From contig CACWXP010000027.1 in NCBI GenBank assembly GCA_902764875.1, positions 1,823 through 65,822 of the forward strand: a DNA stretch of 64,000 bases, read 5' to 3'. Positions 5,398-60,727 of the stretch are shown here, in pieces (position 1 is the stretch's first letter; every line of letters begins with the position of its first letter). The notes beneath the pieces were generated by a model. It worked only from the letters and a program-made list of their open reading frames with translations, had not been told where the DNA came from and ran no database searches. Origin of the DNA: an uncultured Eubacteriales bacterium (GTDB lineage: Bacteria; Bacillota; Clostridia; Christensenellales; Aristaeellaceae). The translations under genes were made by a program, and so were the position numbers.

Positions 5398-5404
5398 ATG
5401 TCAA

Positions 5405-5478
5405 GATTCGAACCCCCGGTACCTTTCGGTATCACTGGTTTTCAAGACCAGCGCCTTCAACCGCTCGGCCATCGCTCC
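5405..5478 (-). pseudogene. tRNA-Ser (anticodon UGA) lacking the 3' T-stem strand and 3' acceptor strand
   Basis: Reverse complement reads GGAGCGA-TG-GCC..GGC-G-CTGGT-CTTGAAA-ACCAG-(variable arm TGATACCGAAAGGTAC)-CGGGGG-TTCGAAT-C. It then runs into TTGACAT and the next tRNA. The expected CCCCC and TCGCTCC strands are missing. Confidence 0.6.
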
Positions 5479-36928: not shown

Positions 36929-37667
36929 TCTTCATATACAGCAAATCCGAAGGAACTACCAGATTCCATTCACCGATGTAAACACCTTTCGTCATATCTG
37001 CAGTCAGGTACCGCTTGCTTTTCCCAATGTGTTCCCGGCAGGCAGAGAAGAAATGATCTGTTAGTCCCAGCGTATTCCGACAGCGCCATAGGAGATAACC
37101 AGATTTCTGATATAGAAACTGGTTCTTATACAACGATAGGTAATGTAGTATCTTGTTTTCACTGACATTGCTCAAACTGTCAATGATGGCAACTGTTTCT
37201 TCAATACCGCCGATCCTATCCATGTCCTTTATACAATCGGTCAGAGTGCGTTCTCGATCCGTAATCCTGATTCCTCCACTGAAGGCTGGCGTTTCAACAC
37301 CTTCATCCAGATTTGGCTTTACATAATGGTATGTGTATCCATCAAATTCAAAGTTCCGGAATTTGGTTTTTGAGGAAACGTATACATCATAGAACACCTG
37401 ATCGGACACACCGTAGTACTCCATCGCTGTATGGTGAGATATATAAGAAGTATCGCTTATTGCGCTTGCGATCTGGAAACGATTTGCCACAGGTCCCCCG
37501 TTTTCAGCGCTGATACAGGTATACAGATTACTCCGAATTTTCAGAACCTTGGAAGTTGCTATCATTCTTTTTACGGCTGAACGGGCACTGTTCATGTTGT
37601 TGTAAAAGAGATTAACATCTTCGATGGTAAACACGGGATGCTTTGCCATCTCAAAATATATGTCCAT
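36897..37667 (-). CDS. AbiEi-family antitoxin/transcriptional regulator
   Basis: N-terminal winged-helix-like region (FTIEDVNLFYNNMNSARSAVKRMIATSKVLKIRSNLY) and a C-terminal AbiEi_4-like domain. Gene order AbiEi then AbiEii. Confidence 0.85.
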   Translation of the reverse strand: MDIYFEMAKHPVFTIEDVNLFYNNMNSARSAVKRMIATSKVLKIRSNLYTCISAENGGPVANRFQIASAISDTSYISHHTAMEYYGVSDQVFYDVYVSSKTKFRNFEFDGYTYHYVKPNLDEGVETPAFSGGIRITDRERTLTDCIKDMDRIGGIEETVAIIDSLSNVSENKILHYLSLYKNQFLYQKSGYLLWRCRNTLGLTDHFFSACREHIGKSKRYLTADMTKGVYIGEWNLVVPSDLLYMKNGEDSINAAV

Positions 37668-44606: not shown

Positions 44607-45125
44607 ATGAGCAATGTCAAGGGCCCTGACGAAGCTCAAAACCCAAATTTTGAAGATCTAGTAGCGCAGTATCAGGGATCTGTATTGCGGATGTGTTTCC
44701 TCTACCTGTGCGACAAGACACTGGCTGAGGACGCTGTGCAGGAAACGTTTGTGAAGGTATACAGGGGATTGAATGGTTTTCATGGTCAGAGCAGCATTAA
44801 GACCTGGATCATGAAAATTGCCATTCATACCTGCTACGATATGAATCATTCCGGATGGTTCCGGCATTTTGACCGCCGGATCACACCGGAGATGCTGCCT
44901 GAAGCGTCAGTTCCGTTTGAGGAAAAAGACGAAGAACTGATCACAGCCGTCATGCGGCTCCCGATCAAACTGCGCGAAGTGATTCTGCTGTTTTACTATC
45001 AGGGATTCAGCATACAGGAAATCATGGATTCGCTGGGCATGTCCCAGTCAACCGTCACGGGACGGTTGAAACGGGGAAGAGACAAACTTCGCGGACTACT
45101 GGAAAGGAGGGATTCCGATGCGTGA
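44607..45125 (+). CDS. ECF-type sigma-70 family sigma factor (pair 2)
   Basis: Region 2 (VLRMCFLYLCDKTLAEDAVQETFVKVY...IKTWIMKIAIHTCYD) and region 4 (REVILLFYYQGFSIQEIMDSLGMSQSTVTGRLKRGRDKL). Paralogous to the sigma at 49796-50299 (shared GWFRHxDRRITPExLPE). Confidence 0.9.
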   Translation: MSNVKGPDEAQNPNFEDLVAQYQGSVLRMCFLYLCDKTLAEDAVQETFVKVYRGLNGFHGQSSIKTWIMKIAIHTCYDMNHSGWFRHFDRRITPEMLPEASVPFEEKDEELITAVMRLPIKLREVILLFYYQGFSIQEIMDSLGMSQSTVTGRLKRGRDKLRGLLERRDSDA

Positions 45126-46368
45126 AGTTGAAGAAAGAGCGATCTTCCAGAACGCTGTGGATCGACGTCTTTCCGGTCTGCAGGAGAATCCTTTCCTGGC
45201 TCAGCGAATCATGAGCGCTGAAAAGGGAGAAATCAAAGTGAAAAAGAAACTGACGCTGAGCATGGCTTTGGTAATTGTGCTGTTGCTTATCGCGGTAACG
45301 GCGCTCGCCGTTGCGCTGCTGTCGCCCAAAGAGATTGTGGAACAGGTAGCCGTGCCGATTGCGCAGAGCAATGACCAGGAGAATTATACCTATGAAGAAC
45401 TGGCGGATTTGATCCGAACACTGAACGAAAACGGGATTACGCTGGACGAAGGTTCTAAGATTGTGCAGGCTTTTCAAGCAGGACACGGCTACTGGGAAGG
45501 AGATACCATAAAGGAAATTTGCCGTGCAGCATTTGGTGAGGATTCATGGACACCGGAACAGAGTTACTGGTATGGAGAAATGATGGTTGCTGTCGGTGCT
45601 TGGGAACATAATGCCTATATACTGCCGAAAGAAGATGAATTGCAGGAAGAACAGGCACGAATCCTTGCTGTGCAGATTCTGAATAATACTTATCATGTGA
45701 ACTTGCCATCAGAAAGTAACGAATCTTGGACAGTCACAGCTGCTCTTGGATTCCTTTGTGATGAGGATTCAGTAACAGGTATACCGTCGTGGTTTATTAA
45801 CTTCATTCCAAATTCCGATGATGATGAACTGCAAGGCTACACTGTAACCTTCGACTTGCATGGAGAGAACGCGCAACCGGATCATCTTGTAGTAATAAAC
45901 AAAAAACCGGATGAGACCACCGTAGAAAAGTATAATGAAATACAGGCTGATTTTGAAAAGGAAAAACAGGTAGTATCTGAATATGGTGAAGTAATGCACT
46001 TCTGGCCGGATGAAGTTAAAGTAGAAGTATATGGTGGACTATATGGCTTACCCTATGCAATACCGGAACCGGAAGAATATGCTGTTGCACTGGAAGATGC
46101 GAAAAGATTTATCGCCGAAAAATATGGGGCAGACGCATTGGAAAAATTGGGCGACTATAAGGTTGGATATCTCTTCCAGAAGTTGGATGATGAAGAAGAT
46201 ATTGAAACAAAAGCGACGCAGCTAATGTGGGATATTATGTTCACAACAGATCCGAAATTCCTGTCAGACGGCTACAGGGTACAATTCCAGAGAGTCATTG
46301 ACCATGAGACCGGCGAGGAGAACATTGTTGATGTGATTGTTGAACATGCTCATTTGGGAAGCGGGTAA
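45118..46368 (+). CDS. Single-pass membrane protein, probable cognate anti-sigma factor (...HAHLGSG)
   Basis: 8-nt overlap with the sigma gene. Cytoplasmic N-terminus, then TM LTLSMALVIVLLLIAVTALAVALL, then a large extracytoplasmic domain. Same architecture as 48799-49803. Confidence 0.6.
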   Translation: MREVEERAIFQNAVDRRLSGLQENPFLAQRIMSAEKGEIKVKKKLTLSMALVIVLLLIAVTALAVALLSPKEIVEQVAVPIAQSNDQENYTYEELADLIRTLNENGITLDEGSKIVQAFQAGHGYWEGDTIKEICRAAFGEDSWTPEQSYWYGEMMVAVGAWEHNAYILPKEDELQEEQARILAVQILNNTYHVNLPSESNESWTVTAALGFLCDEDSVTGIPSWFINFIPNSDDDELQGYTVTFDLHGENAQPDHLVVINKKPDETTVEKYNEIQADFEKEKQVVSEYGEVMHFWPDEVKVEVYGGLYGLPYAIPEPEEYAVALEDAKRFIAEKYGADALEKLGDYKVGYLFQKLDDEEDIETKATQLMWDIMFTTDPKFLSDGYRVQFQRVIDHETGEENIVDVIVEHAHLGSG

Positions 46369-46985: not shown

Positions 46986-47046
46986 CTTTTTGTTGAGCTC
47001 TGTAACGTTTTTTGATCTATTGAAACTAACTGTATGGAAGGAGGTG

Positions 47047-47541
47047 ATGAAGGTGCTGGACCCTGAAGCTGTATATCAGCAATACAGAGATATGGTATAC
47101 GGATACCTTTTCAAGCTGTGCCAGAATCATGATCTTGCGGAAGAGCTCACGCAGGAGACATTCTTTCAGGCGCTGAAACGTTGGAACAAATTTCAGGGGA
47201 AAAGCGATATCGGAACCTGGCTATGTTCTATCGCCAGAAATCAGTATTATCTGCTTTTCAGGAAATCCAAGGAAGAGCCTGTTGCGATCATAGATCAGGA
47301 ACCGGAGCCGGATTTTTCAGAAACGATCATTCATCGCGGCTTAGAAATAGACGCATATAAGGCCCTTCATCATTTGCCAGAGCCATACAGGGAAGTCTTT
47401 ACACTTCGAATCTTCAGCGATCTGAATTACCGTGAGATTGCTGAAGTCTTCGGGAAATCAGAGAGCTGGGCACGGGTGACCTGTTACAGAGCAAAGCGCA
47501 TGCTTCAGGATGCATTGAAAGGAGCAAACAGCCATGAATAA
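47047..47541 (+). CDS. ECF-type sigma-70 family sigma factor (pair 3)
   Basis: Region 2 (VYGYLFKLCQNHDLAEELTQETFFQAL...IGTWLCSIARNQ) and region 4 (REVFTLRIFSDLNYREIAEVFGKSESWARVTCYRAKRML). Start is ATG 47047 or GTG 47053 after GGAGG. Confidence 0.9.
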   Translation: MKVLDPEAVYQQYRDMVYGYLFKLCQNHDLAEELTQETFFQALKRWNKFQGKSDIGTWLCSIARNQYYLLFRKSKEEPVAIIDQEPEPDFSETIIHRGLEIDAYKALHHLPEPYREVFTLRIFSDLNYREIAEVFGKSESWARVTCYRAKRMLQDALKGANSHE

Positions 47542-48472
47542 AGAATGTGGTATTGTCCGGGATCTTATGCCACTCGTCATTGATGATGTTGCCGGTATCG
47601 AGAGCAAGGAATATGTAGAAAACCACCTGACCGGATGTGAGGAATGCAAAAAGATATATCAGGAAATGAACGCAGAGATCCCTGGAAAGACGGAGAAAGA
47701 AAAAGGTAATGAACAAAAAGCATTCTCAGCTGCCGCAGGAAAGCTGAAAAAGAAACGCCGTTTTCGCACGTTGAAACATGTTCTTCTCGGGATCTTGATT
47801 GCCAGTATTGTCTTTGGAGCCGGTCTCTTTGGATACGGAAAACTGGCTCAGGTCAGGGAACACGTTTACTACGGCTTCTATAAAGTCTATCTGTCTGAAC
47901 TGGACAATAACAAAGTGGTTTTCACTATGGATTACAGGGGCAGCTATGACGATCTAAGTACAATGGTAAAGGAAGTCAGCGAAACTGATCCTAAGACAGG
48001 AGAAAAAAAGCTGATCATGTATGTTTATCTGGAAAAGTACAGGATTCCGAGGAAAATGCAGGAACCCAATCAGAATCAGTACTTCCAGGTTTTGACAGCT
48101 GAGAATATGGCAGAATACAGCGAAATACGTCTGGGTGTTCCTGAAGAGTATCAGACGATCTGGGTTCAGGGACAGCAGATTACAAAGGCGTCTGTACAAA
48201 TGAACGAGTATTTCTTCTGGTCTGATATTGAAGAAAAAATGTGGGATTTTACCCGCGAGAGTACAGATGGAAAGGTCGCTTTTACTGATTTCAGGATAAG
48301 TAGCATTGAATTGATTGTTCATAATCAGATGTACGCTATCGCCTGCACTGTTCCGGAATGGCAGCCTTGGGTATCAGGACGGCAGATTGAACTGGCCGAT
48401 CAGGAAACCATCCTCTGGGCGCTTTCAGGTCTGAGAGAAGCTGGGATTCAGATTGATAAACCGAATCCGTAA
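47534..48472 (+). CDS. Anti-sigma factor, zf-HC2 type, membrane-bound
   Basis: CGIVRDLMPLVIDDVAGIESKEYVENHLTGCEECKKIY (H-x3-C-x2-C) and TM LGILIASIVFGAGLFGY. 8-nt overlap with its sigma gene. Confidence 0.8.
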   Translation: MNKECGIVRDLMPLVIDDVAGIESKEYVENHLTGCEECKKIYQEMNAEIPGKTEKEKGNEQKAFSAAAGKLKKKRRFRTLKHVLLGILIASIVFGAGLFGYGKLAQVREHVYYGFYKVYLSELDNNKVVFTMDYRGSYDDLSTMVKEVSETDPKTGEKKLIMYVYLEKYRIPRKMQEPNQNQYFQVLTAENMAEYSEIRLGVPEEYQTIWVQGQQITKASVQMNEYFFWSDIEEKMWDFTRESTDGKVAFTDFRISSIELIVHNQMYAIACTVPEWQPWVSGRQIELADQETILWALSGLREAGIQIDKPNP

Positions 48473-48798: not shown

Positions 48799-49803
48799 TC
48801 AATCCGGGGTAAACATTTTCTGTAAAGTCTCAATGTCCAGACAAGGTGAGGAAACATCAATGTTCTCCCAGGTGGATACTGTAGGTTCAATTGATACGGG
48901 CAGGTCGGCATACATGGGGTCCATGATGCATTCAATGGGATGGCTCAGGCGTCTCCGCATGGCAAGACTGTTAATTGCCGGATCATTGGAATCAACAATT
49001 GCAAGTGCATCATCGATACCCGGGACAGTAATCACAGAGGCGCTCTGCCCATCAATCAAATCAAAAGTTCGTTCATCAGCTTCTGGATCATCGATCAGCA
49101 TTGAACTTACAAGAACATAATGCTTATTATCTCCGGATTCTTTGAAGCTGATGAAATACCATACAACCACAGAATCGGAATCGTCAATTTTATACCGTTT
49201 CAGTGTAATCGCGCCTTCCTGACGTTCTTCGACCAGCTTGTATTCCCCGTCTGCTTTGCAGGAAATCGATACCTTGGCCTCCTGAAACTCGTATCCATCC
49301 GGAATCCAGGTGGGCAGTGTCAGTTCGGACGAATGAACCATATACTCCCGGAATTCATCCCATGAGTTGAATGTTTTTTGTATTGGTCTGGCTCCGCCCA
49401 TTGTACCTCCAGCTGTTTCATAGGAAACCACCCCATATTCATCTTCAGCGACAGAATTTTGCAGAAGTTCATCTGCCATCCGGCTGAGGTCTTCATCGCT
49501 CAATATCTGTGCATCCAGTGGCGGCACTACTGTAGCTTCGGGCCCAATCGGCACTTCGGTTTCCTCAACCGTTTCGCCTTTCCAGTTAATGCTGATTCGA
49601 TGATATACTTCCGTTGCGGCATATGCGACTGCTGCAAGCACAAGCAGAAGCGCAATAACGCCTATAAAGCTAATTGACAGTTTCTTTTTCATAACGGTGC
49701 CTCCCTGATTCACCTGCTGTCGAACAGCTTTGCTGTTCCGGACAGACCAGGTAATATTTGAAAGTTCGGCATCCAATCGACTTTTCAGATCATTTTCATC
49801 CAT
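48799..49803 (-). CDS. Single-pass membrane protein, probable cognate anti-sigma factor
   Basis: Start ATG 49803 (MDENDLKSRLDAELS...) overlaps the sigma stop by 8 nt. TM ISFIGVIALLLVLAAVAYA, then an extracytoplasmic domain. Same architecture as 45118-46368. Confidence 0.6.
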   Translation of the reverse strand: MDENDLKSRLDAELSNITWSVRNSKAVRQQVNQGGTVMKKKLSISFIGVIALLLVLAAVAYAATEVYHRISINWKGETVEETEVPIGPEATVVPPLDAQILSDEDLSRMADELLQNSVAEDEYGVVSYETAGGTMGGARPIQKTFNSWDEFREYMVHSSELTLPTWIPDGYEFQEAKVSISCKADGEYKLVEERQEGAITLKRYKIDDSDSVVVWYFISFKESGDNKHYVLVSSMLIDDPEADERTFDLIDGQSASVITVPGIDDALAIVDSNDPAINSLAMRRRLSHPIECIMDPMYADLPVSIEPTVSTWENIDVSSPCLDIETLQKMFTPD

Positions 49804-50299
49804 CGTAATACCACCCTTCCAGTTTCTTTCGAAGAAGCTGGTTTGCCTTTCGAATCTGTCGTTTGGCGGTTGCAACAGAGACACCGGCTGTTTCTGCGGT
49901 TTCCTGAACGGTGAATCCTTCATAATATCGAAGAAGGATTACCATCCGCAGTTTGGCAGGCAGGGAGCTGATTGCTCCGGAGACTTCACCGTCCGGGAAG
50001 TGAACTTCCTGCGCTTTTTCCGGAAGGTTTTCAGGAGTAATTCGTCGGTCCATATGCCGAAACCATCCCGTACGCTGATAATCACGGCACGTATTTACGG
50101 CAATTCGTATCAGCCACGTTTTTTTACTGCTTTCATTTCTGAATGTATCCAGTGCTTTCCAGGCCTTGATAAAGGTGTCCTGTGCGGCATCTTCCGCCTG
50201 GAAAGGATCCTTAAGCTGCAGCGTACAAAAACGCATGATTTCATCGCCGTAGTGATTCATGAGGTACTCCAGTTCTTCCTGATGTTCGGTGTCCGTCAT
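49796..50299 (-). CDS. ECF-type sigma-70 family sigma factor (pair 4)
   Basis: Region 2 (IMRFCTLQLKDPFQAEDAAQDTFIKAW...KKTWLIRIAVNTCRD) and region 4 (RMVILLRYYEGFTVQETAETAGVSVATAKRQIRKANQLL). Confidence 0.9.
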   Translation of the reverse strand: MTDTEHQEELEYLMNHYGDEIMRFCTLQLKDPFQAEDAAQDTFIKAWKALDTFRNESSKKTWLIRIAVNTCRDYQRTGWFRHMDRRITPENLPEKAQEVHFPDGEVSGAISSLPAKLRMVILLRYYEGFTVQETAETAGVSVATAKRQIRKANQLLRKKLEGWYYDG

Positions 50300-50524
50300 G
50301 CAGCCTTGCCTCCTTTCACTTTAATAGACGGATATTCCGTATATAGTGGCTCATTATAATGTGGAAGCCTGAAAGATTATTGTTTCAACAATTTGAAAAC
50401 ACACCGGCGATTATGCCGGTGATACACAATTATCAGGAATGCCCTTTGAGGCAAGAAATTCTGGTGTCAAGTCATAGGAGGAGGTTATGTCATATATCTT
50501 GCCCTCAAAAGACCAACTGGATTT

Positions 50525-51247
50525 TCATTGCTTAAGATAATCTACCTGGAAACCATAAAACTCAAGCTTCTGGATTATTTCATCATACGATTTTCTGCCC
50601 ATGTTCTTGATTTTCATCAAACTGGCCTTGTCCGGTATTCTCAGCAGATCGCGAATCATGTGAATTCCGCTGTCCTTCAATACATTGTAAGCTCTGATTT
50701 GGAGATCCATCTCCTCAATAGGCGAATAACTAAAATCAAGTGGTCTTCCATCGTACCATTCATCCGAGTTGATATAGTCCTTGTCAATCCAGGCGACTAC
50801 ATTATCGACTCTTGGCGCACATCGCCTGTCGGATTTGTAGAATCCCCAGTCATCCTTATACCTTTCGCCGCCATCAAAGAAGGCAATTTCATGTGTGAAG
50901 CTCCCATCGCCCTGGGCAATCTTAACTCCATAGTAGCCATCACTTAATGGTTCCCAGGTCTTGATTGGCATCCACATAACAGCTCTGTCCTTGAAATAAT
51001 ATGGCGGTGCCGGACGGCTTTTTGCAGCAACTTCTTCGGCCTCCTCTGCAGTAAGAAAAACATCCTTTTCAAACTCTAAATCGCCGTATACGTTATCAAC
51101 CCGAACAAAAAGCTGATTATCCTTTGCAAGAATGACTTCTTTTACTCGAATTGCACGCACCACATGATCACAGTCACTGCAAATCTGATATACATAATCG
51201 CCTGGTAAAACAGGCAAGGTCCCTTTTTCGATATGATAGTTCAGCAT
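50525..51247 (-). CDS. Protein with C-terminal RNA polymerase alpha-subunit CTD-like (HhH) domain and unknown N-terminal domain
   Basis: The last 65 aa or so, SPIEEMDLQIRAYNVLKDSGIHMIRDLLRIPDKASLMKIKNMGRKSYDEIIQKLEFYGF, align by eye with E. coli alpha-CTD [56 protein letters not shown]. The N-terminal 170 aa or so are unrecognised. Confidence 0.7.
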   Translation of the reverse strand: MLNYHIEKGTLPVLPGDYVYQICSDCDHVVRAIRVKEVILAKDNQLFVRVDNVYGDLEFEKDVFLTAEEAEEVAAKSRPAPPYYFKDRAVMWMPIKTWEPLSDGYYGVKIAQGDGSFTHEIAFFDGGERYKDDWGFYKSDRRCAPRVDNVVAWIDKDYINSDEWYDGRPLDFSYSPIEEMDLQIRAYNVLKDSGIHMIRDLLRIPDKASLMKIKNMGRKSYDEIIQKLEFYGFQVDYLKQ

Positions 51248-51268
51248 AATCTCTCTTCTCCTCGTAAG

Positions 51269-52150
51269 TTATGTTGTAGCTCCTGTTTCCTTCATGCAAT
51301 GAATGTGAGCAGCTTCAAGCGCTTCATTTGCAGATGTTCGAAGAATGATCTTCTTAACCAGAGTATCCAATTCAGAACCTTCGGTATAGTCTGCCGGCGC
51401 ATAATACCTGATCCGCTGATCCCGGAACATCTTCTGAACCTTTTCTTTCCGCCCCGTTTCAGGGTTATACACGCCAATTGAATGTCCGCCATTTACATTG
51501 ACAAGCTTCATGCAAGGAATGTCAGTGTCGCTGTCCCCGATATAAACCATATTTCTGAATGGAACACGGATCTGATCCGGCGGGAAATAATCATTGACCC
51601 CAGGATCATTTACATCCAGCGTCCCTTTTTCAATTCGGAACAGGAACTGGGTTTTGTTCGTGTAGTTAACCACCTGCGCCGGCCATTTAACCAATCCGCG
51701 CTCATTAAAGTAGAAAGAGCTGGCGTAGATTCTGTCAAAAGCGCCACTCTTGGCCATTTCGGTGCCCTCGATCATCTCCTGCAGACCGGAGGAGATGATG
51801 TAATGCTCCACGATCACACCGTTTTCTTTGCCATATTCGCGGATGCGGTCAAACCACTGCTCTACACCAGGGAATACTTTTACCTTCGCGCCGTAATCCA
51901 TCAATGCTTTCCGGTTCAGAACCAGATTGCCTTCAGCCTCAACGACCATCTTATACATGTAGGCCAGGTTGCCGTCCATTCCGTTCTCGTGAGCCAGACT
52001 GTCGGTTTCTTTCCAAAACTGCTCGACATCATACCCAACGCTTTGGATATAGCCCTGCGCCTGCATGTTGTCCGGAGTCAGGGTCTTGTCAAAATCATAG
52101 CAAATCGCCAGTACAGGCAGCGCTTCTTTTGTCTTCCGCTCGTAATCCAT
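51269..52150 (-). CDS. HAD-superfamily hydrolase
   Basis: Motif I ICYDFDKTLT (DxDxT). Motif IV YIGDSDTDIPCM. 293 aa with a large cap region. Confidence 0.75.
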   Translation of the reverse strand: MDYERKTKEALPVLAICYDFDKTLTPDNMQAQGYIQSVGYDVEQFWKETDSLAHENGMDGNLAYMYKMVVEAEGNLVLNRKALMDYGAKVKVFPGVEQWFDRIREYGKENGVIVEHYIISSGLQEMIEGTEMAKSGAFDRIYASSFYFNERGLVKWPAQVVNYTNKTQFLFRIEKGTLDVNDPGVNDYFPPDQIRVPFRNMVYIGDSDTDIPCMKLVNVNGGHSIGVYNPETGRKEKVQKMFRDQRIRYYAPADYTEGSELDTLVKKIILRTSANEALEAAHIHCMKETGATT

Positions 52151-52168
52151 TTTGTTATTCCTCCTGGC

Positions 52169-52681
52169 TTAATCAGCCGCGCTGATGCTGCCAATCTCCG
52201 TATAGATCATTCCGTTCTTGCCGCGATCTGAGCGGAACAAGGAGATGCTGTCAACAACCATCGAAACATCCGGGACATGGGTTTCCGGAACACCTTTGCT
52301 GTCATCCACGTTCCGGAAAAGCGTGATGTGCGGCATAAAGGCTTTTCTGTCGAAGGGAATGTCGGCCTTAGCAAGCTCATACCGCAGATGTTTGACCAAC
52401 TGCTGCAGCGGTTCCGATTCATGAACTCCTGCCCATAGAACGTTATTGTTGAAAAGGCCTATGTCGTTCAGCGTGATCGGAAACGCTGAGAACTCAACAT
52501 TCTCCATCACTTCCAGCACTTGATCCGGATCGGGATGCTCTCCGATGAAGGTCAGCGTCATGTGAAGATTCTCCTGAGGGGTCAGTGAACCGCGAATCCC
52601 GTGACGAGACAGGTAATCCTGTGTCTTGATCAGCGTCTTTCGGATCTCGTCATTCAGGCTGATCGCAATAAACAACCTCAT
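52169..52681 (-). CDS. thpR: 2H phosphoesterase, RNA 2',3'-cyclic phosphodiesterase ThpR/LigT-like
   Basis: 170 aa. MRLFIAISL start and two HxTx motifs (HMTLTF, HITLFR) at the expected spacing. Confidence 0.85.
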   Translation of the reverse strand: MRLFIAISLNDEIRKTLIKTQDYLSRHGIRGSLTPQENLHMTLTFIGEHPDPDQVLEVMENVEFSAFPITLNDIGLFNNNVLWAGVHESEPLQQLVKHLRYELAKADIPFDRKAFMPHITLFRNVDDSKGVPETHVPDVSMVVDSISLFRSDRGKNGMIYTEIGSISAAD

Positions 52682-52687
52682 AGCCGA

Positions 52688-53551
52688 TCACTCCTTCACC
52701 GTCTCATACAGGCGGACATCCTCGTCGGTCGCAATGTCTTTCTGATCCACGACGCACAGTACGCGGCCGATCAGATAAACCTTGGTGTCATCATCAAAGG
52801 TCATGACTGGATATTTTGCATTCAGGGAATGAAGCCCATCCGCCTGGTACTCCTTGATGTACAGCTCGTTTCCAATGGCAAACGCGCCGATCTCGCCATG
52901 CTTCAGTTCCGGTGCGTCCGGAATCCGTTCGATCAGAACGAAATCTCCGTTGTGATACTCCGGTTCCATACTGTCACCGTTGACCTTGAACACGCAGTCA
53001 GCGCGGTCAAGCCACGGCACATCGTACAGATAGAAGGGGCTGGAGCTGCCCTCGTACTCTGTCGGATCACCGATGCCGGCAGCCAGGGTGCGATCAACCA
53101 GAGGCAGTTCGTATACCTTGCGGCGGCTCTTCTGCCGCTTGCGAGCCTGGTCAACGGTGACCATGGTCCTGACCATCGTGTCTACAGTGTACTGATCGCC
53201 TTTATTCAGCTGCCGGTATTGGGAGACCAGATTGGCTTCACGCTCAGAAAGCGCATCTCCGGGAGCGTCAAGGCCAAAGAGCTGCTGCAGCGTAATACCC
53301 AGCACATCGCAAATCACCGGAAGAAGGCTGACATCCGGACGGCTGCGGCCTTTTTCCCAGTTGTTGACGGTATTTGCCTGGGTGCCGATCTTTTCAGCAA
53401 AAGCCTTCTGCTCCATGCCTTGGTTCTTCCGGTAGAAGCGAATCCGGTCACAGATAATGGGAAGAGAGGGCTGCTCCACCCGCTCTCCGGTCTTCATATC
53501 AATGACGTTTCCTTTATTGCCGGTATCTCTTTCAATCTTTCTGCGGGACAT
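52688..53551 (-). CDS. CI/LexA-like repressor: XRE HTH plus S24 peptidase domain
   Basis: HTH EQKAFAEKIGTQANTVNNWEKGRSRPDVSLLPVICDVLGITLQQLFG. S24 FKVNGDSMEPEYHNGDFVLIE ... ELYIKEY (Ser/Lys dyad). Start ATG 53551 lies 6 nt after GGAAGGAGGG. Confidence 0.85.
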   Translation of the reverse strand: MSRRKIERDTGNKGNVIDMKTGERVEQPSLPIICDRIRFYRKNQGMEQKAFAEKIGTQANTVNNWEKGRSRPDVSLLPVICDVLGITLQQLFGLDAPGDALSEREANLVSQYRQLNKGDQYTVDTMVRTMVTVDQARKRQKSRRKVYELPLVDRTLAAGIGDPTEYEGSSSPFYLYDVPWLDRADCVFKVNGDSMEPEYHNGDFVLIERIPDAPELKHGEIGAFAIGNELYIKEYQADGLHSLNAKYPVMTFDDDTKVYLIGRVLCVVDQKDIATDEDVRLYETVKE

Positions 53552-53742
53552 GATCGTCCCTCCTTCCGTGGTAGGCGTATGTATGACAGAATCATGATAG
53601 TACATAATTTGTGAATTGTCAACAACATGTAGTACTTTACTTTACACGAATTATGTGTTATTATCCGTATTACCTCATCAGGGCCGCATTTCCCCCTTAG
53701 GGGAAAGTTGCCTCTTGATCATCCGCGGAAGGAGGAGCCGAA

Positions 53743-54495
53743 ATGTGCCAGGCCAACCTGGGAAAAGTGGACTACGTGAAGTACCGTTATTGGCTGCTTC
53801 ATGATCCGAACTGCACGAAGACAGCCATGCAGCACATAAACGAAAACGATCCTTTTGCTTCATTAGGCATCCACATTCATGTTCATGAAAGCCCCGTAGC
53901 AGTTGACTTCAGCGAACCTTTCGGCGCGATCCTCTGGCATCAGAGAGTCAACACAGGCTATCCGCTGTGTGTCGCTTCCGCCTTCATGGGCATGAGCGTT
54001 GAAGATCTGATCCGCCTCGAGATGGGCTGGGCGCTTCCGGACAAAGAAAAGCTGGATGGTATCCTGGCTGCCATGTCCTTCTTCTACGGGTTTGATCCGT
54101 TGCAGTTCTTCAGGCTGATCAAGCGCGGCGATGAATACCGTCAGGAAATGCCGGTGGATCTGAGCGAATATCTCGGTCTGGAACTCAATGAGAAAACGCT
54201 TCAGCTGATGCCACGGGCCATGTACGAGCAGCGGAAGCCTTCCTTCTTTGAGCGTTATCGGATCAATGTCATCGGTCAAAGCTTTGATTCCGGTATTGAG
54301 TTCCCGCAGTGCGTGATCTGGTCTGACGGCAGAGTATTTCAAATCGAAAAGATTGACAGCGCACAGGAACACGCCCATTTCGCAACAGGCGGTATCGGAA
54401 CACGCTTCTCCTGCTGGTTGAATGGCAGGCAGCGCTTCATCGGATACGAGGAACCGGGCGACTGGTTTGTGGAATCTCCTCAATATGCGTCCTGA
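53743..54495 (+). CDS. Hypothetical protein with central HTH-like segment, divergent from the repressor
   Basis: GGAAGGAGGAG RBS. Segment FGAILWHQRVNTGYPLCVASAFMGMSVEDLIRLEMGWALPDKEKLDGI looks XRE-like. The C-terminal domain is unknown. Confidence 0.5.
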   Translation: MCQANLGKVDYVKYRYWLLHDPNCTKTAMQHINENDPFASLGIHIHVHESPVAVDFSEPFGAILWHQRVNTGYPLCVASAFMGMSVEDLIRLEMGWALPDKEKLDGILAAMSFFYGFDPLQFFRLIKRGDEYRQEMPVDLSEYLGLELNEKTLQLMPRAMYEQRKPSFFERYRINVIGQSFDSGIEFPQCVIWSDGRVFQIEKIDSAQEHAHFATGGIGTRFSCWLNGRQRFIGYEEPGDWFVESPQYAS

Positions 54496-54552: not shown

Positions 54553-54840
54553 TCAGAACGGCAAGTCTTCCTTTATGCTGCTGGACGACGATTCGTTGCC
54601 GGCATCCCAAGCTTTCAGAAGCCCATCCACGAAAAATTGAGTCTTTTCCCCGCAAATCTCGCAGTATCGGGCATTGCCGGCATTTGCATGGCTATACATT
54701 TTTCCAATGCAGGAATTCATGCGTGAATGACCGCAGACAATGCACGCCGTTGACTTTTTTGAAAACTTCTTGTTTCCGCAATACGGGCAAACCTTCACCC
54801 GACGTTGATCATCCATCGGAAAACACTCTGCGTAAATCAT
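54553..54840 (-). CDS. Zinc-ribbon protein paralogous to the ImmA C-terminus
   Basis: CPYCGN...CIVCGH...CEICGEKTQFFVDGLLKAWD parallels CEICGSETVYQLRGLLQDWR at the end of the upstream gene. Confidence 0.6.
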   Translation of the reverse strand: MIYAECFPMDDQRRVKVCPYCGNKKFSKKSTACIVCGHSRMNSCIGKMYSHANAGNARYCEICGEKTQFFVDGLLKAWDAGNESSSSSIKEDLPF

Positions 54841-54852
54841 CGGCGCACCTCC

Positions 54853-55836
54853 TCAGGACTGCGTGACAGCGCGGATATAGTCTTCTTTTTCTTTTCTCCA
54901 ATCCTGGAGCAATCCGCGCAGCTGATAAACGGTCTCGCTGCCGCATATTTCACAGAAGCGCGCGTTCGGGGAATTGATGTGTTCGCAGGGCCAGAAGGTA
55001 TTGTTATTCCCGCAGAAGTTGTAAACTGGCATCCCGCAGATCTTGCAGTACTTGGCTTCATCCGCAAAATCCTCATTTCCGCAAACCGGGCAGAAGATAA
55101 CGCGGTTGTGCTGGTCTGCCATTGTCCTTGTATACTCGACGATCCGAACTCCTTTCTTTCCGCCTTCAGGGAGATACTCCCCGCAGATCTCGCAATAATC
55201 CGCCACAGGAGAAATCTGACTGTTTCCGCACTGCGGACAGGTCGCATGGGCAGGAATCCTGCACAGGTCGAGCCGTTTCAGATTGTTCAACCGCTTAAAG
55301 CAGGCCTGATCAGAAACCAGAAATTCTTTTGAGAGTTCTTCATAAGAAGAAAACTGGCTTTTCAGGATCAGGCGTTCTGGCATCAGGAGCCGTGCTGCAA
55401 ATTCATCCGCTTCCAGATCATCCATTTGGCGTTTTTCAGGCGACTTCATGTTTTTCGGGACATCCAGATGCCCGCAGAAAACATGCCCAAGCTCATGGGC
55501 CAGGGAGAAGTTGCAGCGCCGCCATGAAGAGCGCTTCTGCCAATCCTTAGGAACGGGCTTCATCACGATCTGAAAGCTATCGACTTCCGGAAGGTAGGTT
55601 GCAACAGCATTGAATGCCGCTGACATCCTTCCTTCTTCCAGTACTTCCAGATGGATCAGCTTCGCTTCTTGGATTTTCCTTACCAGCTTGAAGCAGTCTA
55701 TCGGATACTCTGTAACATCATAATCTTTCATAAACTGTTTCAGGCTAATACGGACATTGGACAGGCTTACTTCATTCAACCTGTCCAGCGTGTAATATCT
55801 TGGATCATACGATCCGGCTATGTTACTTTTTTTCAT
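54853..55836 (-). CDS. ImmA/IrrE-family metalloprotease fused to a multi-zinc-ribbon C-terminal domain
   Basis: HEXXH in LAHELGHVFCGH. The C-terminal third holds CPQCGN..CEICGE, CPVCGN..CKICGM and CEH..CEICGS. 14-nt overlap with the upstream XRE gene. Confidence 0.85.
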   Translation of the reverse strand: MKKSNIAGSYDPRYYTLDRLNEVSLSNVRISLKQFMKDYDVTEYPIDCFKLVRKIQEAKLIHLEVLEEGRMSAAFNAVATYLPEVDSFQIVMKPVPKDWQKRSSWRRCNFSLAHELGHVFCGHLDVPKNMKSPEKRQMDDLEADEFAARLLMPERLILKSQFSSYEELSKEFLVSDQACFKRLNNLKRLDLCRIPAHATCPQCGNSQISPVADYCEICGEYLPEGGKKGVRIVEYTRTMADQHNRVIFCPVCGNEDFADEAKYCKICGMPVYNFCGNNNTFWPCEHINSPNARFCEICGSETVYQLRGLLQDWRKEKEDYIRAVTQS

Positions 55837-56269
55837 TTTCAGCCTGGATTTCCTTCCGTCTCTTTTCCAGATAGGTCATAGCCAGACCAGTCAGGATTTC
55901 GCGATCGGAATCAGAGAGTTCACTGGAGACTCGATAAGCGACGTTTGCCCAGGTAGCGTCTTTCTGGAACATTTCCTTAACGCCGCGGACAACATCCACG
56001 ATTTCTCCATCCTGATTACGGAAGACCTGCTCAAAGGTCTTTTCCTCTTCGTGAACTTCTTCAATATAGCCAGCCAGGTGCATCAGCTGAGCATAGTCAA
56101 TGACCAATGCTTTGGCGATTGCCTTCAACATCTTGGGAGAGGGTGCGCGGCGTTTGCCAGATTCGACTCTGGAGATTTCAGCGCCGCTGACGTGACATTT
56201 TTCTCCCAGCTCAGTCTGAGTGAGGCCACGTTCCATCCGGGCATTCTGGATATACTCACCAACAGTCAT
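55823..56269 (-). CDS. XRE-family HTH repressor (ImmR-like)
   Basis: VGEYIQNARMERGLTQTELGEKCHVSGAEISRVESGKRRAPSPKMLKAIAKAL. Gene order repressor then ImmA protease, as in ICEBs1-type immunity modules. Confidence 0.88.
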   Translation of the reverse strand: MTVGEYIQNARMERGLTQTELGEKCHVSGAEISRVESGKRRAPSPKMLKAIAKALVIDYAQLMHLAGYIEEVHEEEKTFEQVFRNQDGEIVDVVRGVKEMFQKDATWANVAYRVSSELSDSDREILTGLAMTYLEKRRKEIQAENEKK

Positions 56270-56381: not shown

Positions 56382-56599
56382 TCAGACACTCCCCTCGACG
56401 AGATCGGGGGAAGGCCTTGAAATCACTAAGGTTTCGGGGCCAGCTGATTGCGCTTATTTTTTTGCCTTGTCGCTTACCTAAAAGGTAAACGAACTGGTAA
56501 ACCGGTATACGAAGCAAGCAAATCAGCACTCTCCGGCGGTGCTTAGGCCATGAAGTTATCCCGGAATATTACTAATGAATAGTGGGAGGACAAGATGGA

Positions 56600-57835
56600 A
56601 TGTCTCCGAATCATTACCGCCTGAAGAAAGGCGTTAAGGAGCAGCTGAACGAGCTGCTTAGCGGTTCCTTTGCTGTTTACAACAACGACTACGGAAACAG
56701 CTGGGAAACGGTCGCGTCCGTCATCTTTGACTGGGTAAAGGAAAAGAAAGCGGACGTGGTCATTATCGACAATCTGATGTCCCTGAACATCACCAGCAAC
56801 ATCCAGGACAAGTATGACGTTCAGGCTCAGATTGTGCAGGTTCTGTCCAAAGCGGCAAAGCAGCTGAATGTGCATATCCACTTCATCTGCCATCCCCGGA
56901 AGACGGAAACCTTCTTACGGAAGAACGATATCAGCGGAACCAGTGATCTGACCAATACCGCGGATAACGTCTTCATGGTTCATCGGATCAACAATGACTT
57001 CCTTCTCCGCGTGAAGGAAGTGTACCCCAATACCTATCTGCCGGTCAGGGTTTCCCTGATGAAGAAAAAGGAGCAGACCAAGATCAACAACCTGGAGAAC
57101 GGTATGGTTCATCAGGTGATCGAGGTTGTTGCCGGTGAAGGCTTTGTGTTCGGCCTGTACAACAGTTCCGTGATCACCTACGCCGACAATCAGAAACTGC
57201 CGGCAAACACGCTGGTGGCGACCGCCGTCACGGACAAGAACGGCAACCTGACGATTTCCGGCATGTATCCGCACGGCAATTACTACCTGAAGGAGCTTGC
57301 GGTTCCGGACGGATGGAAACTTAGCACGGAGAAGTTCCCCGTAACGCTGACTTCCGCGAATAAGGCTTCCAATGAGAACACGATTGTGGTGAAGCTTTCT
57401 GATCCGATTCTGAATGAGCTGATCTACATTCCCGTGACCATTACGAAGACCGATATCACCGGCGCTGAAAAACTGCCTGGTGCGCTGATCGAAGTGTATG
57501 ACGAGAACCGGAAGCTGATCTATCGGGAGTACACCAACAAGAACGGTGAGATCCCGGATATGTATATCCTGACGGCCACAGGCAATTCTATGATCGACGC
57601 TGGTATTCATGAGGGGGATATGATCCTTGTGCGCAGGCAGGAAACCGCAAATATAGGCGACATTGTGGTTGTGTGGGTTGAAAATGAAGGAAATACCCTG
57701 AAACGCTTTTATAGGAAAGGGAAGACGATCATCCTGAAGCCGGAGAATTCGGACATGGAGGACATCAGGGTGAAAGAAGAGGACTGCAGGATTCAGGGCG
57801 TGGCGATCTGGGTGCTCAAGAAAGTCGGAGACTAA
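56600..57835 (+). CDS. Mosaic ORF: RecA/DnaB-like helicase C-terminal fragment + Cna-B/SpaA-like repeats + LexA-type S24 domain
   Basis: aa about 1-150: VVIIDNLMSL...HIHFICHPRK...SDLTNTADNVFMVHR (no Walker A). Middle: AGEGFVFGLYN...GNYYLKELAVPDGWKL...TITKTDITGAEKLPGALIEVYDENRK. End: ILTATGNSMIDAGIHEGDMILVRRQETANIGDIVVV...LKRFY. ATG 56600 lies 8 nt after GGAGGA (the track uses GTG 56582). Confidence 0.5.
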   Translation: MSPNHYRLKKGVKEQLNELLSGSFAVYNNDYGNSWETVASVIFDWVKEKKADVVIIDNLMSLNITSNIQDKYDVQAQIVQVLSKAAKQLNVHIHFICHPRKTETFLRKNDISGTSDLTNTADNVFMVHRINNDFLLRVKEVYPNTYLPVRVSLMKKKEQTKINNLENGMVHQVIEVVAGEGFVFGLYNSSVITYADNQKLPANTLVATAVTDKNGNLTISGMYPHGNYYLKELAVPDGWKLSTEKFPVTLTSANKASNENTIVVKLSDPILNELIYIPVTITKTDITGAEKLPGALIEVYDENRKLIYREYTNKNGEIPDMYILTATGNSMIDAGIHEGDMILVRRQETANIGDIVVVWVENEGNTLKRFYRKGKTIILKPENSDMEDIRVKEEDCRIQGVAIWVLKKVGD

Positions 57836-58033: not shown

Positions 58034-58369
58034 CGATTTGACGGAAAGAAGCAACAGAACAGAACGCGGATAACGTTCACCGTGCGGCGAGTGGGCCGTA
58101 CGAAGGGCTAAGTGGAGCCGATATATTGCCGAAGCGCAGAAACGCGGGACAGGTCTGTCCGGGCGGAGCGCGGAGGCGTATACCGGCTCCGTTTTTTATT
58201 CTTTGTAAGACGCCGGTTTTCGGGACCCCGCATGCCGGCAAAATGCGGGGACTTGTCTTCCTGAAACCGGCCGACATAACACGCACAGCCAGGGCAAGGG
58301 CTGCTGCAGACCACACGAATGGAGAATTCGCTATGGTTGGCAGCGTTGTTCAATGCACCCTTCTTTGGC

Positions 58370-58883: not shown

Positions 58884-60122
58884 TTACCATTCACGGACCA
58901 GATTTCTGAACATGATCCAGACTTCGCGGTTTGTGATCGCCAGCCGGTATACGGGCTCTTCCCAGTACGAAGGCTCTTTCATTGCCGGCGTCAGAATGAT
59001 TTTCAGATATCCGGAGGCCAGCAGCAGGCTCCAGATCGCGTTCCTTTTTCGATCCAGCTGATTGAAAACAATCTGTTCGTCAAGGGAAACCTCGATAAAA
59101 CCGCCGCGCAGCAGCGTTTCAAACTGCTTTTTGATTTCCGGGCTGCTTTTCCTCAGCAGCGACCCCACCAGTCCGTTTCCGCTGGTGTTTGCCCAGTATG
59201 TGTCCAGCTTTCTGTCATCCAGGAAGTTTGTGATCGACCACGGATTATACATATCCGTCACAGAACCGAAGGTAAACCCGTCATACCACTCCTTCACATC
59301 CTGCTTGTCTTTCTCCGCAAAACTGTATTCATCCAGCGCCTGAAACACTTCTTCCTCGGTAAAGCCGAAGCAGGTGGCGTATTTCCCGGAAGTTGTGGTT
59401 ACAACATCCAAATTATTCAGGTCGGAAAAGATCGATTCCTTGCTGACCCGGGTAATCCCGGTCATGATTCCCCGTTCCAGAGATGGGTTGGTCTTGAAGG
59501 TATTGTTGAACATGGTTCTTGTAAAGGCGACCAGATCCTCCCAGTATCCGTGGATATAGGCTTCCTGCAGCGGGGTATCATATTCATCCAGGAAGATCAG
59601 GACTCTTTTTCCGTGGATCTTTTGTAAAAGCCCTGACAGCAGATTCAAAGAAAGCGCCGCATGAACATCGGACATATCCTCTGTGATTCTCTCCAGAGCT
59701 CTGCGCTCATTCGGATCCAGCCCTTTATATTCCCGCAGTTCCGGAAATGCCGAGAACAGCTTTACCAGCATGTTTTTTATCTGGATTATTGTATCTTCAC
59801 AGGTTCTTCCCTTTATTCCCGCAAAGCTCAGGAAGATGACAGGCCACTTTCCCTGCTGCCCGCGCATATCTGCGTCTTCCCAGATTTTCAGGCCTTCAAA
59901 AAGGTCGCTCCGGTTTTCAAACTTATTGGAAAAGAAGCAGTTGAGCGTGGACATATTCAGGGTCTTGCCGAAACGGCGCGGACGGGTGATCAAAGTAGCA
60001 ACATCGCCGCCGTTCCACCATTTGCTGATGAAATCCGTTTTATCCACATAGAAACGCCGATTGACCCGTATGCTTTCAAAATCCTGAATCCCGGTCGCAA
60101 TTTCTCTCTTCATGCTTTTCAC
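58884..60122 (-). CDS. AAA-ATPase_like-domain protein, apparently lacking the usual C-terminal PD-(D/E)XK part
   Basis: N-terminus IATGIQDFESIRVNRRFYVDKTDFISKWW...TRPRRFGKTLNMSTL and LIFLDEYDTPL match the 'AAA-ATPase-like/PDDEXK_9' family. The ORF stops at ...NREVWIMFRNLVREW, abutting the convergent gene's stop. Confidence 0.75.
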   Translation of the reverse strand: MKSMKREIATGIQDFESIRVNRRFYVDKTDFISKWWNGGDVATLITRPRRFGKTLNMSTLNCFFSNKFENRSDLFEGLKIWEDADMRGQQGKWPVIFLSFAGIKGRTCEDTIIQIKNMLVKLFSAFPELREYKGLDPNERRALERITEDMSDVHAALSLNLLSGLLQKIHGKRVLIFLDEYDTPLQEAYIHGYWEDLVAFTRTMFNNTFKTNPSLERGIMTGITRVSKESIFSDLNNLDVVTTTSGKYATCFGFTEEEVFQALDEYSFAEKDKQDVKEWYDGFTFGSVTDMYNPWSITNFLDDRKLDTYWANTSGNGLVGSLLRKSSPEIKKQFETLLRGGFIEVSLDEQIVFNQLDRKRNAIWSLLLASGYLKIILTPAMKEPSYWEEPVYRLAITNREVWIMFRNLVREW

Positions 60123-60319
60123 GCCCCCCAGCCGATTCCTCTTTCATTATATCAGTTCCGGAATTGAAGCACAAGCCGGACCGGATCGGCGTACGGAACG
60201 GGGCAGCATGAAAACTTTTTTATAAAAAAACAAAAAAAGTGACTCAAAACCCCTCCAAATTTGCAGTGGTAAGTGAGGGGAAGATTTTCCTCCGGAAAAA
60301 CGCAAGGAGGAAACGGAAC

Positions 60320-60727
60320 ATGAAAAACGGGATCAGGGTGACTGCACGGCTGGTGAAGCAACTGGTGGAGGCGCTGGACGGCGTGAAGGATCTGGAACTG
60401 CTGAGCGATGAAGAGATCGCGAATCTGCTGGACCGGTCGGAGTTGCTTGTGAACTGGACGAAAGAGATGAAGGAAGCGGCGCTGGGGCTGATTCTTCAGG
60501 GACGGAAGATTCCCCGCTACAAGGCGGCGCCGTCGACCACGCAGCGGAAGTTCAGAAACGAGAAAACGGCGGCGAAACTGATTGAAGAGGCGGGATTCGA
60601 CCCCTGGGACCGGAAGATCAAGGGCATTCCGGCGCTGGAGACGCTCATGGGGAAAGAGAAGTTCGACGAAGTCTGCGGGCCGCTGGTGATCAAGCCGACG
60701 GGGAAGCCGAAGCTGACGCGGGGGTGA
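60320..60727 (+). pseudogene. C-terminal fragment of a DUF2800-type phage protein
   Basis: ...RKIPRYKAAPSTTQRKFRNEKTAAKLIEEAGFDPWDRKIKGIPALETLMGKEKFDEVCGPLVIKPTGKPKLTR matches the DUF2800 C-terminus as I recall it. The nuclease-like N-terminal 250 aa or so are absent. Has its own AAGGAGGA RBS and ATG. Confidence 0.55.

Follow-up and report, generated by a model that had tools for sequence, protein, structure and literature searches.

A probable repressor-led cargo slot holding a PDC-S34 HAD phosphatase and two unrelated passengers

Lambda cI-rexAB is the textbook case of repressor-linked moron or exclusion genes. A comparable arrangement is found in a 64,000-nucleotide (nt) stretch of DNA from an uncultured Eubacteriales bacterium of the Clostridia (contig CACWXP010000027.1, positions 1,823 to 65,822; hereafter the window), in which four minus-strand genes encode an XRE helix-turn-helix (HTH)/S24 repressor, a ThpR/LigT-type 2H phosphodiesterase (LigT), a HAD phosphatase, and a protein that ends in a domain like the C-terminal domain (CTD) of the RNA polymerase (RNAP) alpha subunit (the aCTD protein). 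The cassette is best explained, with a probability of roughly 0.68, as the regulatory edge of a degraded element, where a variable cargo slot behind the repressor is filled by a HAD of the PADLOC family PDC-S34 and two unrelated passengers. It shares with lambda the placing of accessory genes behind an immunity repressor, at a mobile-element edge, where co-transcription appears likely and where relatives hold a defence slot; in contrast, its cargo families are unrelated to RexAB, and no intact prophage is visible here. Since the window repressor is promoter-proximal and LexA-like, its cargo is predicted to be induced on cleavage rather than expressed constitutively, and the control would resemble that of DNA-damage-responsive defence operons more than that of lambda PRM-rexAB. 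An earlier note on this DNA had drawn the rexAB analogy, reading the genes behind the repressor as accessory cargo within one transcription unit; this is how they look, but the analogy is imperfect, as a repressor leading its own operon implies negative autoregulation along with induction on cleavage.

XRE-HTH repressors also stand over defence-type operons in CapH/CapP, BrxR/WYL, and DdrO/IrrE. The window repressor, for which PADLOC returns generic HTH matches that include a weak one to capH (1.7e-4), has an N-terminal part like that of DdrO (6jq1, 1.4e-5). Furthermore, a pair with an M78/IrrE-type protease adjoins the cassette, as in the DdrO/IrrE type, and WYL regulators precede aCTD homologues in one locus (L091). 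In the window, by contrast, the protease (S24) is fused to the repressor itself.

PDC-S34 is one of the "phage defence candidates" (PDCs), which were proposed from their embedding in BREX, DISARM, or type I restriction-modification (RM) systems (Payne et al., bioRxiv 10.1101/2024.01.29.577857). The window HAD is a member by its match to all three PDC-S34 hidden Markov models (5.3e-160, 3.2e-122, and 1.5e-87), although two of the three are approximately 100 residues longer than the window protein, and its place behind an S24 repressor, beside LigT and the aCTD protein, is not part of the candidate definition. Defence HAD phosphatases have been described in Chp (PMC12715507), PUA-Cal-HAD (PMC12871103), and DS-9 (PMC13092281), which dephosphorylate ATP, dATP, IMP, or deoxynucleoside triphosphates (dNTPs), and the depletion of nucleotides (ATP, dATP, dNTPs) is documented for the first two. 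These enzymes are fused to or obligately partnered with sensors (CARF, PUA-calcineurin, metallophosphatase), whereas the window HAD lacks both a sensor domain and a fixed partner; it is likened to them by HAD fold and putative role, not by sequence. A 2H phosphodiesterase beside a HAD also recalls RNA-end healing and ADP-ribose (ADPr) modules (T4 Pnkp-type HAD; Iyer et al. 2022, PMC9503650), although the window lacks a kinase, a ligase, and Tpt1, LigT is dispensable in near-identical copies, and the pairing occurs in 1 of 80 diverged loci. The fourth protein shares with RNAP alpha CTDs the fold, 33–41% identity, and the residues of the 265 determinant; unlike RNAP alpha, it has no alpha N-terminal domain, and its CTD is fused to a novel, better-conserved domain of 170 amino acids (aa).

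Conserved backbone and changing cargo

In related elements, the genes around the repressor keep one order, i.e., XRE (148 aa), M78 protease (327 aa), a gene of approximately 100 aa, the divergent gene of approximately 250 aa, and the repressor, and this backbone persists at 75–80% repressor identity while the cargo differs. A repressor 80% identical to that of the window is followed by a 118-aa open reading frame (ORF) alone (L118-120), and a 75% identical one by an 84-aa ORF, a PDC-S34 HAD, DrmD, and a type IIG-like gene, with neither LigT nor an aCTD protein (L121). At 95% repressor identity (L095), the cargo comprises LigT, an 85-aa ORF, the HAD, an aCTD protein (70% identical), and DruA; at 52% (L123-126), it is a DUF5131 gene that matches PDC-M41B/M30B, with AbiLi/AbiLii and ParA/RepA_N nearby. 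Because the backbone is conserved and the downstream genes differ, the position behind the repressor is a cargo and defence hotspot, whose occupants in related elements include DruA, DrmA, DrmD, and PDC-type genes. A family-less ORF of 82–85 aa lies just upstream of the HAD in L095 (2137-2394), L121 (5874-6128), and L122 (1224-1472) and is absent from the window.

The same variability is seen at close range in ten near-identical contigs, from other samples, that bear an identical HAD. In 8 of the 10, an internal in-frame deletion of 369 nt reduces LigT to a 47-aa ORF with neither HxT motif, and the repressor and HAD are intact in all eight; LigT thus appears to be an optional add-on of the cassette. 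Similarity ends in five contigs at 51143, 35 codons into the aCTD gene, and is followed by a serine-recombinase fragment, and in three others at approximately 50495, 30 nt past the aCTD stop. On its left side, the cassette therefore ends at a recombination edge, and the extracytoplasmic function (ECF) sigma genes further left are not constant neighbours.

Homologues of the HAD were found in at least 590 genomes with a candidate stretch (one genome per species), from which 80 loci, 70–82% identical, were kept; these come from Lachnospiraceae, Oscillospiraceae, Christensenellaceae, and other Clostridia. The repressor is adjacent to the HAD in none of the 80, the aCTD protein in none, and LigT is nearby in one (L035). 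No conserved neighbour family accompanies the HAD in these loci, the commonest neighbour cluster occurring in 13, and about a third of the scorable loci have no same-strand neighbour within 200 nt. LigT, HAD, and the aCTD protein are not co-conserved as a multi-gene system across homologous or diverged loci, and none of the three is typical of sequenced phages. The three cargo genes are best read as independently acquired accessories and are not a fixed unit. The coherent three-gene system read into the cassette by the earlier note, which had itself listed a lack of co-conservation across homologous elements first among the outcomes that would refute it, is contradicted by these loci; what survives of its defence-cargo proposal is the slot, a defence hotspot in relatives, and the HAD as a PDC-S34 candidate. 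However tightly its genes are packed, an operon can be a mosaic whose cargo is interchangeable, and its anatomy alone is insufficient to name a system.

The cargo genes

The HAD matches PF12710 (9.5e-10), and all of its motifs I–IV are present, with D19/D21/T23, S120/S121, K166, and G205-D210 invariant in 21 sequences. A sequence search of the PDB gave no real match. The AlphaFold2 model (pLDDT 68) matches only generic C1-cap HADs, NT5C3 and phosphoserine phosphatase among them, at a TM-score of approximately 0.47, which does not allow a substrate to be assigned. PADLOC, a check suggested earlier, places the HAD strongly in PDC-S34, while it has nothing for LigT, a negligible PglW match for the aCTD protein, and only generic HTH matches for the repressor. 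The basis on which PDC-S34 became a candidate recurs in the homologue loci, where the HAD is embedded in BREX, DISARM, or type I RM systems or borders on them; copies also stand beside BREX, McrBC, and DISARM/Druantia genes in various loci, and an 86% identical copy lies amid GNAT and methyltransferase genes with McrBC near. Putative same-strand partners (n = 65, by Pfam) include SIR2 (4), HsdS and RNase H1 (3 each), and HsdR-type, PNP_UDP, and DUF1848 proteins (2 each). In IMG/VR, there are only seven HAD loci, each close to an end of its contig; cultured-phage records contain essentially none, and no close HAD is found in INPHARED. The HAD thus acts as a lone gene that is highly conserved and moves horizontally, often but not always beside defence genes.

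Two HAD loci are described here for their content. L035 (4645-11791), from a Lachnospiraceae metagenome-assembled genome, is an NAD/ADP-ribose-themed island with TIR-TPR (850 aa), Macro (435 aa), vWA, and AhpC genes, in which a PDC-S34 HAD, a NUDIX gene, and LigT follow one another with gaps of 10 and 16 nt; it is the sole independent HAD–LigT linkage found. In L104 (2850-11791), BREX PglZ/BrxL are followed by a same-strand row that encodes proteins of 238 and 359 aa, an HD-like protein (faint match), proteins of 65 and 96 aa, the HAD (82% identical), an alpha/beta hydrolase, Macro, ARG+SseB, and SIMPL. This row resembles the ARG-centred anti-ADP-ribosylation systems predicted previously (PMC9503650).

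LigT has the two HxT/Sx motifs of the ThpR/LigT family, matches LigT_PEase (1.7e-21), and scores 130.3 bits against TIGR02258, the NCBI equivalog model for RNA 2',3'-cyclic phosphodiesterase, for which the cutoff is 65.7; its PDB sequence matches are PH0099, E. coli ThpR, and the Thermus 2'-5' ligase. These matches assign it as a cellular ThpR-type enzyme with intact catalytic motifs. The Acb1 family model PF23474, which is present in the Pfam library, does not match LigT at E ≤ 0.01, Acb1 is absent among the PDB sequence matches at E ≤ 1, and none of the 50,697 phage records in INPHARED holds a close homologue. An Acb1 identity was rejected on the first two grounds, the phage-encoded character of Acb1 likewise having no counterpart here. 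The Acb1-like role envisaged in the earlier note is not upheld for an enzyme that is ThpR-type, gives no Acb1 signal, and is deleted in most near-identical copies.

The terminal domain of the fourth protein has the helix-hairpin-helix fold of alpha CTDs together with the 265 determinant. A fold search gave a TM-score of 0.92 and a root-mean-square deviation of 0.9 Å to 9dvt_A, at 41% identity, and identities to alpha CTDs range from 33 to 41%. Counterparts of E. coli R265, N268, G296, K298, and S299 are kept; the R265 position is Pro or Ala in two family members, and most invariant columns lie in the N-terminal domain (N-domain). The rpoA models match residues 170–236 approximately, far under their cutoffs, and an identity as the RNAP alpha subunit (RpoA) was rejected, the alpha N-terminal domain not being found and the N-terminal 170 aa being unrelated. 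No Pfam, PHROG, NCBIfam, or structural match was obtained for the N-domain; fold matches of low probability (Tudor-like, serine integrase) were rejected, and a DUF551-like motif seen by eye was dropped, as Pfam gave no support. The aCTD protein is rare, with 12 clusters among 5.8 billion proteins. The N-domain has 27 representatives among 1.84 billion proteins, which are mostly stand-alone proteins of approximately 170–180 aa (about 15). In one of them, P0142 (410 aa), the N-domain is fused behind a Peptidase_S24 domain. The matches P0141 and P0150, SprB and Big_3 repeat proteins, were set aside as spurious.

In several other contigs, aCTD genes lie beside defence genes. HAD and aCTD genes are followed by Druantia DruA in L093 and L095, and by a NERD/UvrD helicase and DISARM DrmA in L096. 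In L091, the order is WYL regulator, aCTD, BrxP, and BrxC/PglY, with no HAD; in L092, an aCTD gene sits in a prophage lysogeny module with no HAD within 406 nt; and in L097, a 37-codon HAD remnant precedes it. The aCTD protein occurs without the HAD in L091, L092, and L102. No aCTD relatives were found in IMG/VR, and the full aCTD protein is absent from INPHARED phages; a literature search for RNA_pol_A_CTD in a defence context turned up nothing useful. The best lead from this analysis is the aCTD protein, whose rare family joins a novel domain to an alpha CTD and recurs at the head of defence islands.

Control of the cassette and competing explanations

The four minus-strand ORFs, which had been described as tightly packed, were found at the coordinates in Table 1, separated by gaps of 6, 18, and 21 nt; profile matches confirmed the domains proposed for their products (XRE-HTH/S24, ThpR/LigT 2H, HAD, alpha-CTD end), and the motifs quoted for them (GDSM...K, HMTLTF, HITLFR, DFDKT, GDSDTD) are all in the translations. 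The first gene had been read as a CI/LexA-type repressor, and this holds: HTH_3 (6.9e-12, residues 37–90) and Peptidase_S24 (3.8e-16, residues 150–264) are matched in Pfam, phrog_4 "transcriptional repressor" in PHROG (7e-36), and the lexA model TIGR00498 aligns on residues 116–268. The translation contains PLVDRTLAAGIGDP (a LexA-like PLVDRTLAAG cleavage motif), GDSMEP, and LYIKEY, in which the Ser/Lys dyad and the Ala-Gly site were assigned by inspection, residue by residue, from what we take to be the corresponding positions of LexA (PLVGRVAAGEP). The product is a LexA/CI-type S24 repressor, predicted from these motifs to be self-cleaving, of a large family (at least 1000 clusters, approximately 287 aa each).

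The repressor ORF is open up to 53605, and an alternative upstream start is possible; the ATG at 53551 is taken as the start because GGAAGGAGGG lies at 53567-53558, 6 nt ahead of it. A single strong ribosome-binding site had been proposed for the whole operon; instead, every one of the four genes, the cargo genes included, has a Shine-Dalgarno sequence of its own. A 29-nt imperfect inverted repeat, with arms at 53594-53622 (left) and 53636-53664 (right) that are 72% complementary, lies over the back-to-back promoters of the repressor and divergent genes and is a candidate operator. The hairpin past the aCTD gene is the probable operon end. Additionally, the divergent gene claimed for this layout is present and runs into a convergent operon, and no match to its product was found in Pfam, PHROG, or PADLOC. 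The classic lysogeny switch is not: the 250-aa product is not Cro-like, and the window has no structural genes. The C-terminal 65 residues or so of this protein recur at 28–32% identity as small ORFs near M78/HTH genes and near an aCTD gene (L092 2092-2304; L097 14-226), and this segment may represent a small domain of such modules that has so far escaped recognition.

We propose that the repressor would bind the inverted repeat overlapping its own promoter and hold the operon at a low, autoregulated level, and that DNA damage, through RecA*, would make it cleave itself at Ala-Gly, with a burst of cargo expression as the outcome. The HAD would be the cargo likeliest to matter, dephosphorylating a nucleotide or a metabolite derived from NAD or ADP-ribose; such a substrate is proposed because of its NT5C3-like structural neighbours (weak), its SIR2, Macro, ARG, NUDIX, and PNP partners elsewhere, and the characterised defence HADs. 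The aCTD protein would be an accessory in its own right, binding DNA and moving with defence islands, at whose head it sits. If so, control of PDC-S34 falls to a probable DNA-damage-responsive repressor, at a recombination hotspot of gut and rumen Clostridia where relatives carry DISARM, Druantia, AbiL, and other candidates, and the cassette with and without LigT and the aCTD gene offers a concrete construct with which to ask whether a very widespread HAD is a defence gene.

Several points weigh against the variable-slot explanation or parts of it. The promoter and terminator scans overall are close to those of shuffled sequence (10 sites against 8.7 expected and 10 against 7.8). Since they are not enriched, the promoter and terminator sites are supported by position and score only, and co-transcription is a reasonable inference; the four genes probably form one transcript, as judged from motifs, and SOS control of the operon is likewise suggested by motifs. 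PDC-S34 is only a candidate by embedding, and a literature search turned up no mention of it by name. Many HAD homologues are flanked by ordinary chromosomal genes (ABC transporters, MATE pumps, two-component systems), so a non-defence metabolic role is possible. HAD–aCTD adjacency recurs in L093-L096 and L103, which, together with the single independent LigT–HAD adjacency in L035, makes some functional coupling possible. Finally, the element could be a prophage or an integrative conjugative element (ICE)- or plasmid-like.

In a rival explanation, the cargo would form one pathway that processes RNA ends or ADP-ribose and repairs the damage of ribonuclease toxins or phage ADP-ribosylation, in which the 2H enzyme would open 2',3'-cyclic (or ADPr 1'',2''-cyclic) phosphates, the HAD would remove the phosphate, and the aCTD protein would target or sense. 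Both 2H and HAD proteins have been proposed as parts of RNA-end clean-up, and ARG-centred systems with HAD 5'-nucleotidases have been predicted (PMC9503650). The tight HAD-NUDIX-LigT packing beside Macro, vWA, and TIR-TPR genes in L035, the HAD in a row with Macro and ARG/SseB genes in L104-107, SIR2 as its commonest same-strand partner (4/65), and the LigT-HAD-aCTD order retained in L095 at 70% aCTD identity all fit this pathway. It is nevertheless unlikely: LigT is deleted in 8/10 near-identical copies that keep the HAD intact, 79/80 species loci have the HAD without LigT and 0/80 have the aCTD protein, L121 combines repressor and HAD without either, no kinase, ligase, Tpt1, or RtcB partner lies within the window, and ADPr-themed contexts make up only about 3 of some 90. 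Mobile elements frequently carry anti-defence genes close to regulators, and the cassette might instead serve temperate-phage counter-defence, the 2H enzyme degrading cyclic-oligonucleotide signals as Acb1 does and the HAD finishing the task. The Acb1 fold is indeed that of a 2H phosphoesterase (PMC10419184), but LigT lies above the ThpR equivalog cutoff, matches ThpR structures and not PF23474, and is often deleted; close LigT, HAD, and full aCTD homologues are absent from INPHARED, IMG/VR gives seven HAD loci and no aCTD, and in related elements the cargo is accompanied by defence systems rather than by anti-defence genes. The temperate-phage, lysogen-expressed frame of the earlier note is likewise weakened by the lack of structural and lysis genes, a truncated DUF2800 gene, and a cargo almost absent from phage collections, and we regard counter-defence as highly improbable.

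That the cargo consists of ordinary metabolic or housekeeping genes, set beside a regulator by chance and with no role in conflict, is unlikely as well. ThpR is a common cellular enzyme, the HAD homologue occurs in at least 590 of the genomes scanned (one per species), and ABC ATPases, MATE pumps, kinases, DegV, and GNATs are often encoded near it; against this, synteny around the HAD is nil, type I RM, BREX, DISARM, and Druantia genes repeatedly enclose or border it, its slot here is variable and placed at an element edge with recombination breakpoints, and the aCTD family is patchy and of extreme rarity. T4 Alt and ModA ADP-ribosylate Arg265 of RNAP alpha. The counterpart of this residue is kept in the aCTD copy, which could be imagined to act as a decoy for, or a sensor of, phage factors by which RNAP alpha is modified or hijacked; the aCTD protein would then be a new immune component and not a passenger, its N-domain would signal to the adjacent defence genes or regulate them, and the HAD, with the 2H enzyme as an option, would process nucleotides derived from ADPr or NAD; as a joint claim this is speculative and very unlikely. 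A weaker version would take the HAD and the aCTD protein as an undescribed two-gene defence pair that heads BREX, DISARM, and Druantia islands.

The surrounding element

The features of the cassette and its immediate surroundings are collected in Table 1.

Table 1. Positions of the cassette genes, their domains, and associated signals in the window
Feature	Position	Strand	Remarks
Terminator-like GC-rich hairpin, then T-tract TGTTTTCAAA	50402..50421	-	~100 nt past last stop, ahead of the start of the next gene
Two recombination breakpoints	50495..51143	.	Near-identical contigs diverge; edge of shared module
240-aa aCTD protein, fourth gene	50525..51247	-	N-domain and alpha CTD
RNAP alpha-CTD-like helix-hairpin-helix domain	50561..50731	-	RNA_pol_A_CTD (PF03118) 4.2e-18, residues 173-229
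N-terminal ~170-aa beta-rich domain	50738..51247	-	Rare, novel, family-less
293-aa HAD phosphatase, PADLOC PDC-S34 family	51269..52150	-	DxDxT, S/T, K, GDxxxD intact
170-aa ThpR/LigT 2H RNA 2',3'-cyclic phosphodiesterase	52169..52681	-	Both HxTx motifs present (HMTLTF, HITLFR)
LigT segment deleted in relatives	52263..52628	-	369 nt, in frame; short overlap (GAT-type microhomology) at junction
287-aa XRE-HTH + S24 LexA/CI-type repressor, first operon gene	52688..53551	-	Domain and motif matches
Sigma-70-like promoter, repressor operon	53594..53622	-	TTGACA-17-TATCAT, 11/12 match
Divergent promoter-like site, 250-aa gene	53636..53664	+	9/12 match, TG extension
250-aa divergent protein	53743..54495	+	Conserved repressor partner; 246-249 aa in related elements
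Backbone regulator module: XRE-HTH (148 aa), M78/IrrE-type metalloprotease with zinc ribbons (327 aa), 95-aa zinc-ribbon protein	54553..56269	-	

The regulator module is conserved next to the repressor in L118-L121. Its XRE/M78 (ImmR/ImmA-like) pair, at 54.8–56.4 kb, is separate and has strong divergent promoters of its own (12/12 and 10/12 matches); the layout at the repressor is not the main switch of the element. To the right of the cassette lies a gene (56582-57835, +) whose 417-aa product unusually combines a C-terminal Peptidase_S24 with two SpaA prealbumin-like domains and an AAA_25 fragment, and which is conserved in L001, L002, and L006 (411 aa); also on this side are a small HTH protein, DUF6291, and a sigma-70 region 4/DUF1492-like regulator. 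The DUF2800 gene retains profile positions 234–360 of 368, i.e., the C-terminal third, and abuts an AAA-ATPase_like (PF09820) gene on the opposite strand (58884-60727), a junction that looks like an insertion or deletion scar. No phage structural or lysis genes lie within the window. As megablast of 48–58 kb against phage and plasmid collections gave no match, there is no annotated relative to use. From its gene content, the element looks like a degraded integrative element in a genome of gut or rumen Clostridia.

The Rfam gut-2 RNA (RF02990; 51.2 bits against a gathering threshold of 39.8) is found at 58078-58125 (+), within what remains of the mobile element, flanked by the 417-aa S24/SpaA gene and the small HTH gene. 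At about 34 kb, G+C content falls from approximately 0.55 to approximately 0.45, and it rises again near 60 kb. This low-GC block contains ECF sigma/zf-HC2 anti-sigma pairs (34379-35814, 44607-46368, 46990-48472, and 48799-50299), a BlaR-like M56 peptidase (39687-41348), and an AbiEii nucleotidyltransferase toxin (PF08843, 3e-26) at 35960-37667 (-), preceded by an overlapping 256-aa ORF that has no Pfam match and could be AbiEi (type IV toxin–antitoxin/abortive-infection pair). The block from 34 to 60 kb was rejected as a single prophage, the part left of 50.5 kb, with the ECF sigma/anti-sigma arrays, the BlaR-like M56 peptidase, and AbiE, not always being linked to the cassette. Elsewhere in the window, a second, borderline tRNA (Rfam, 29.9 bits against 29), for which ARAGORN reports none, lies at 5404-5478 (-) beside tRNA-Ser(GCT).

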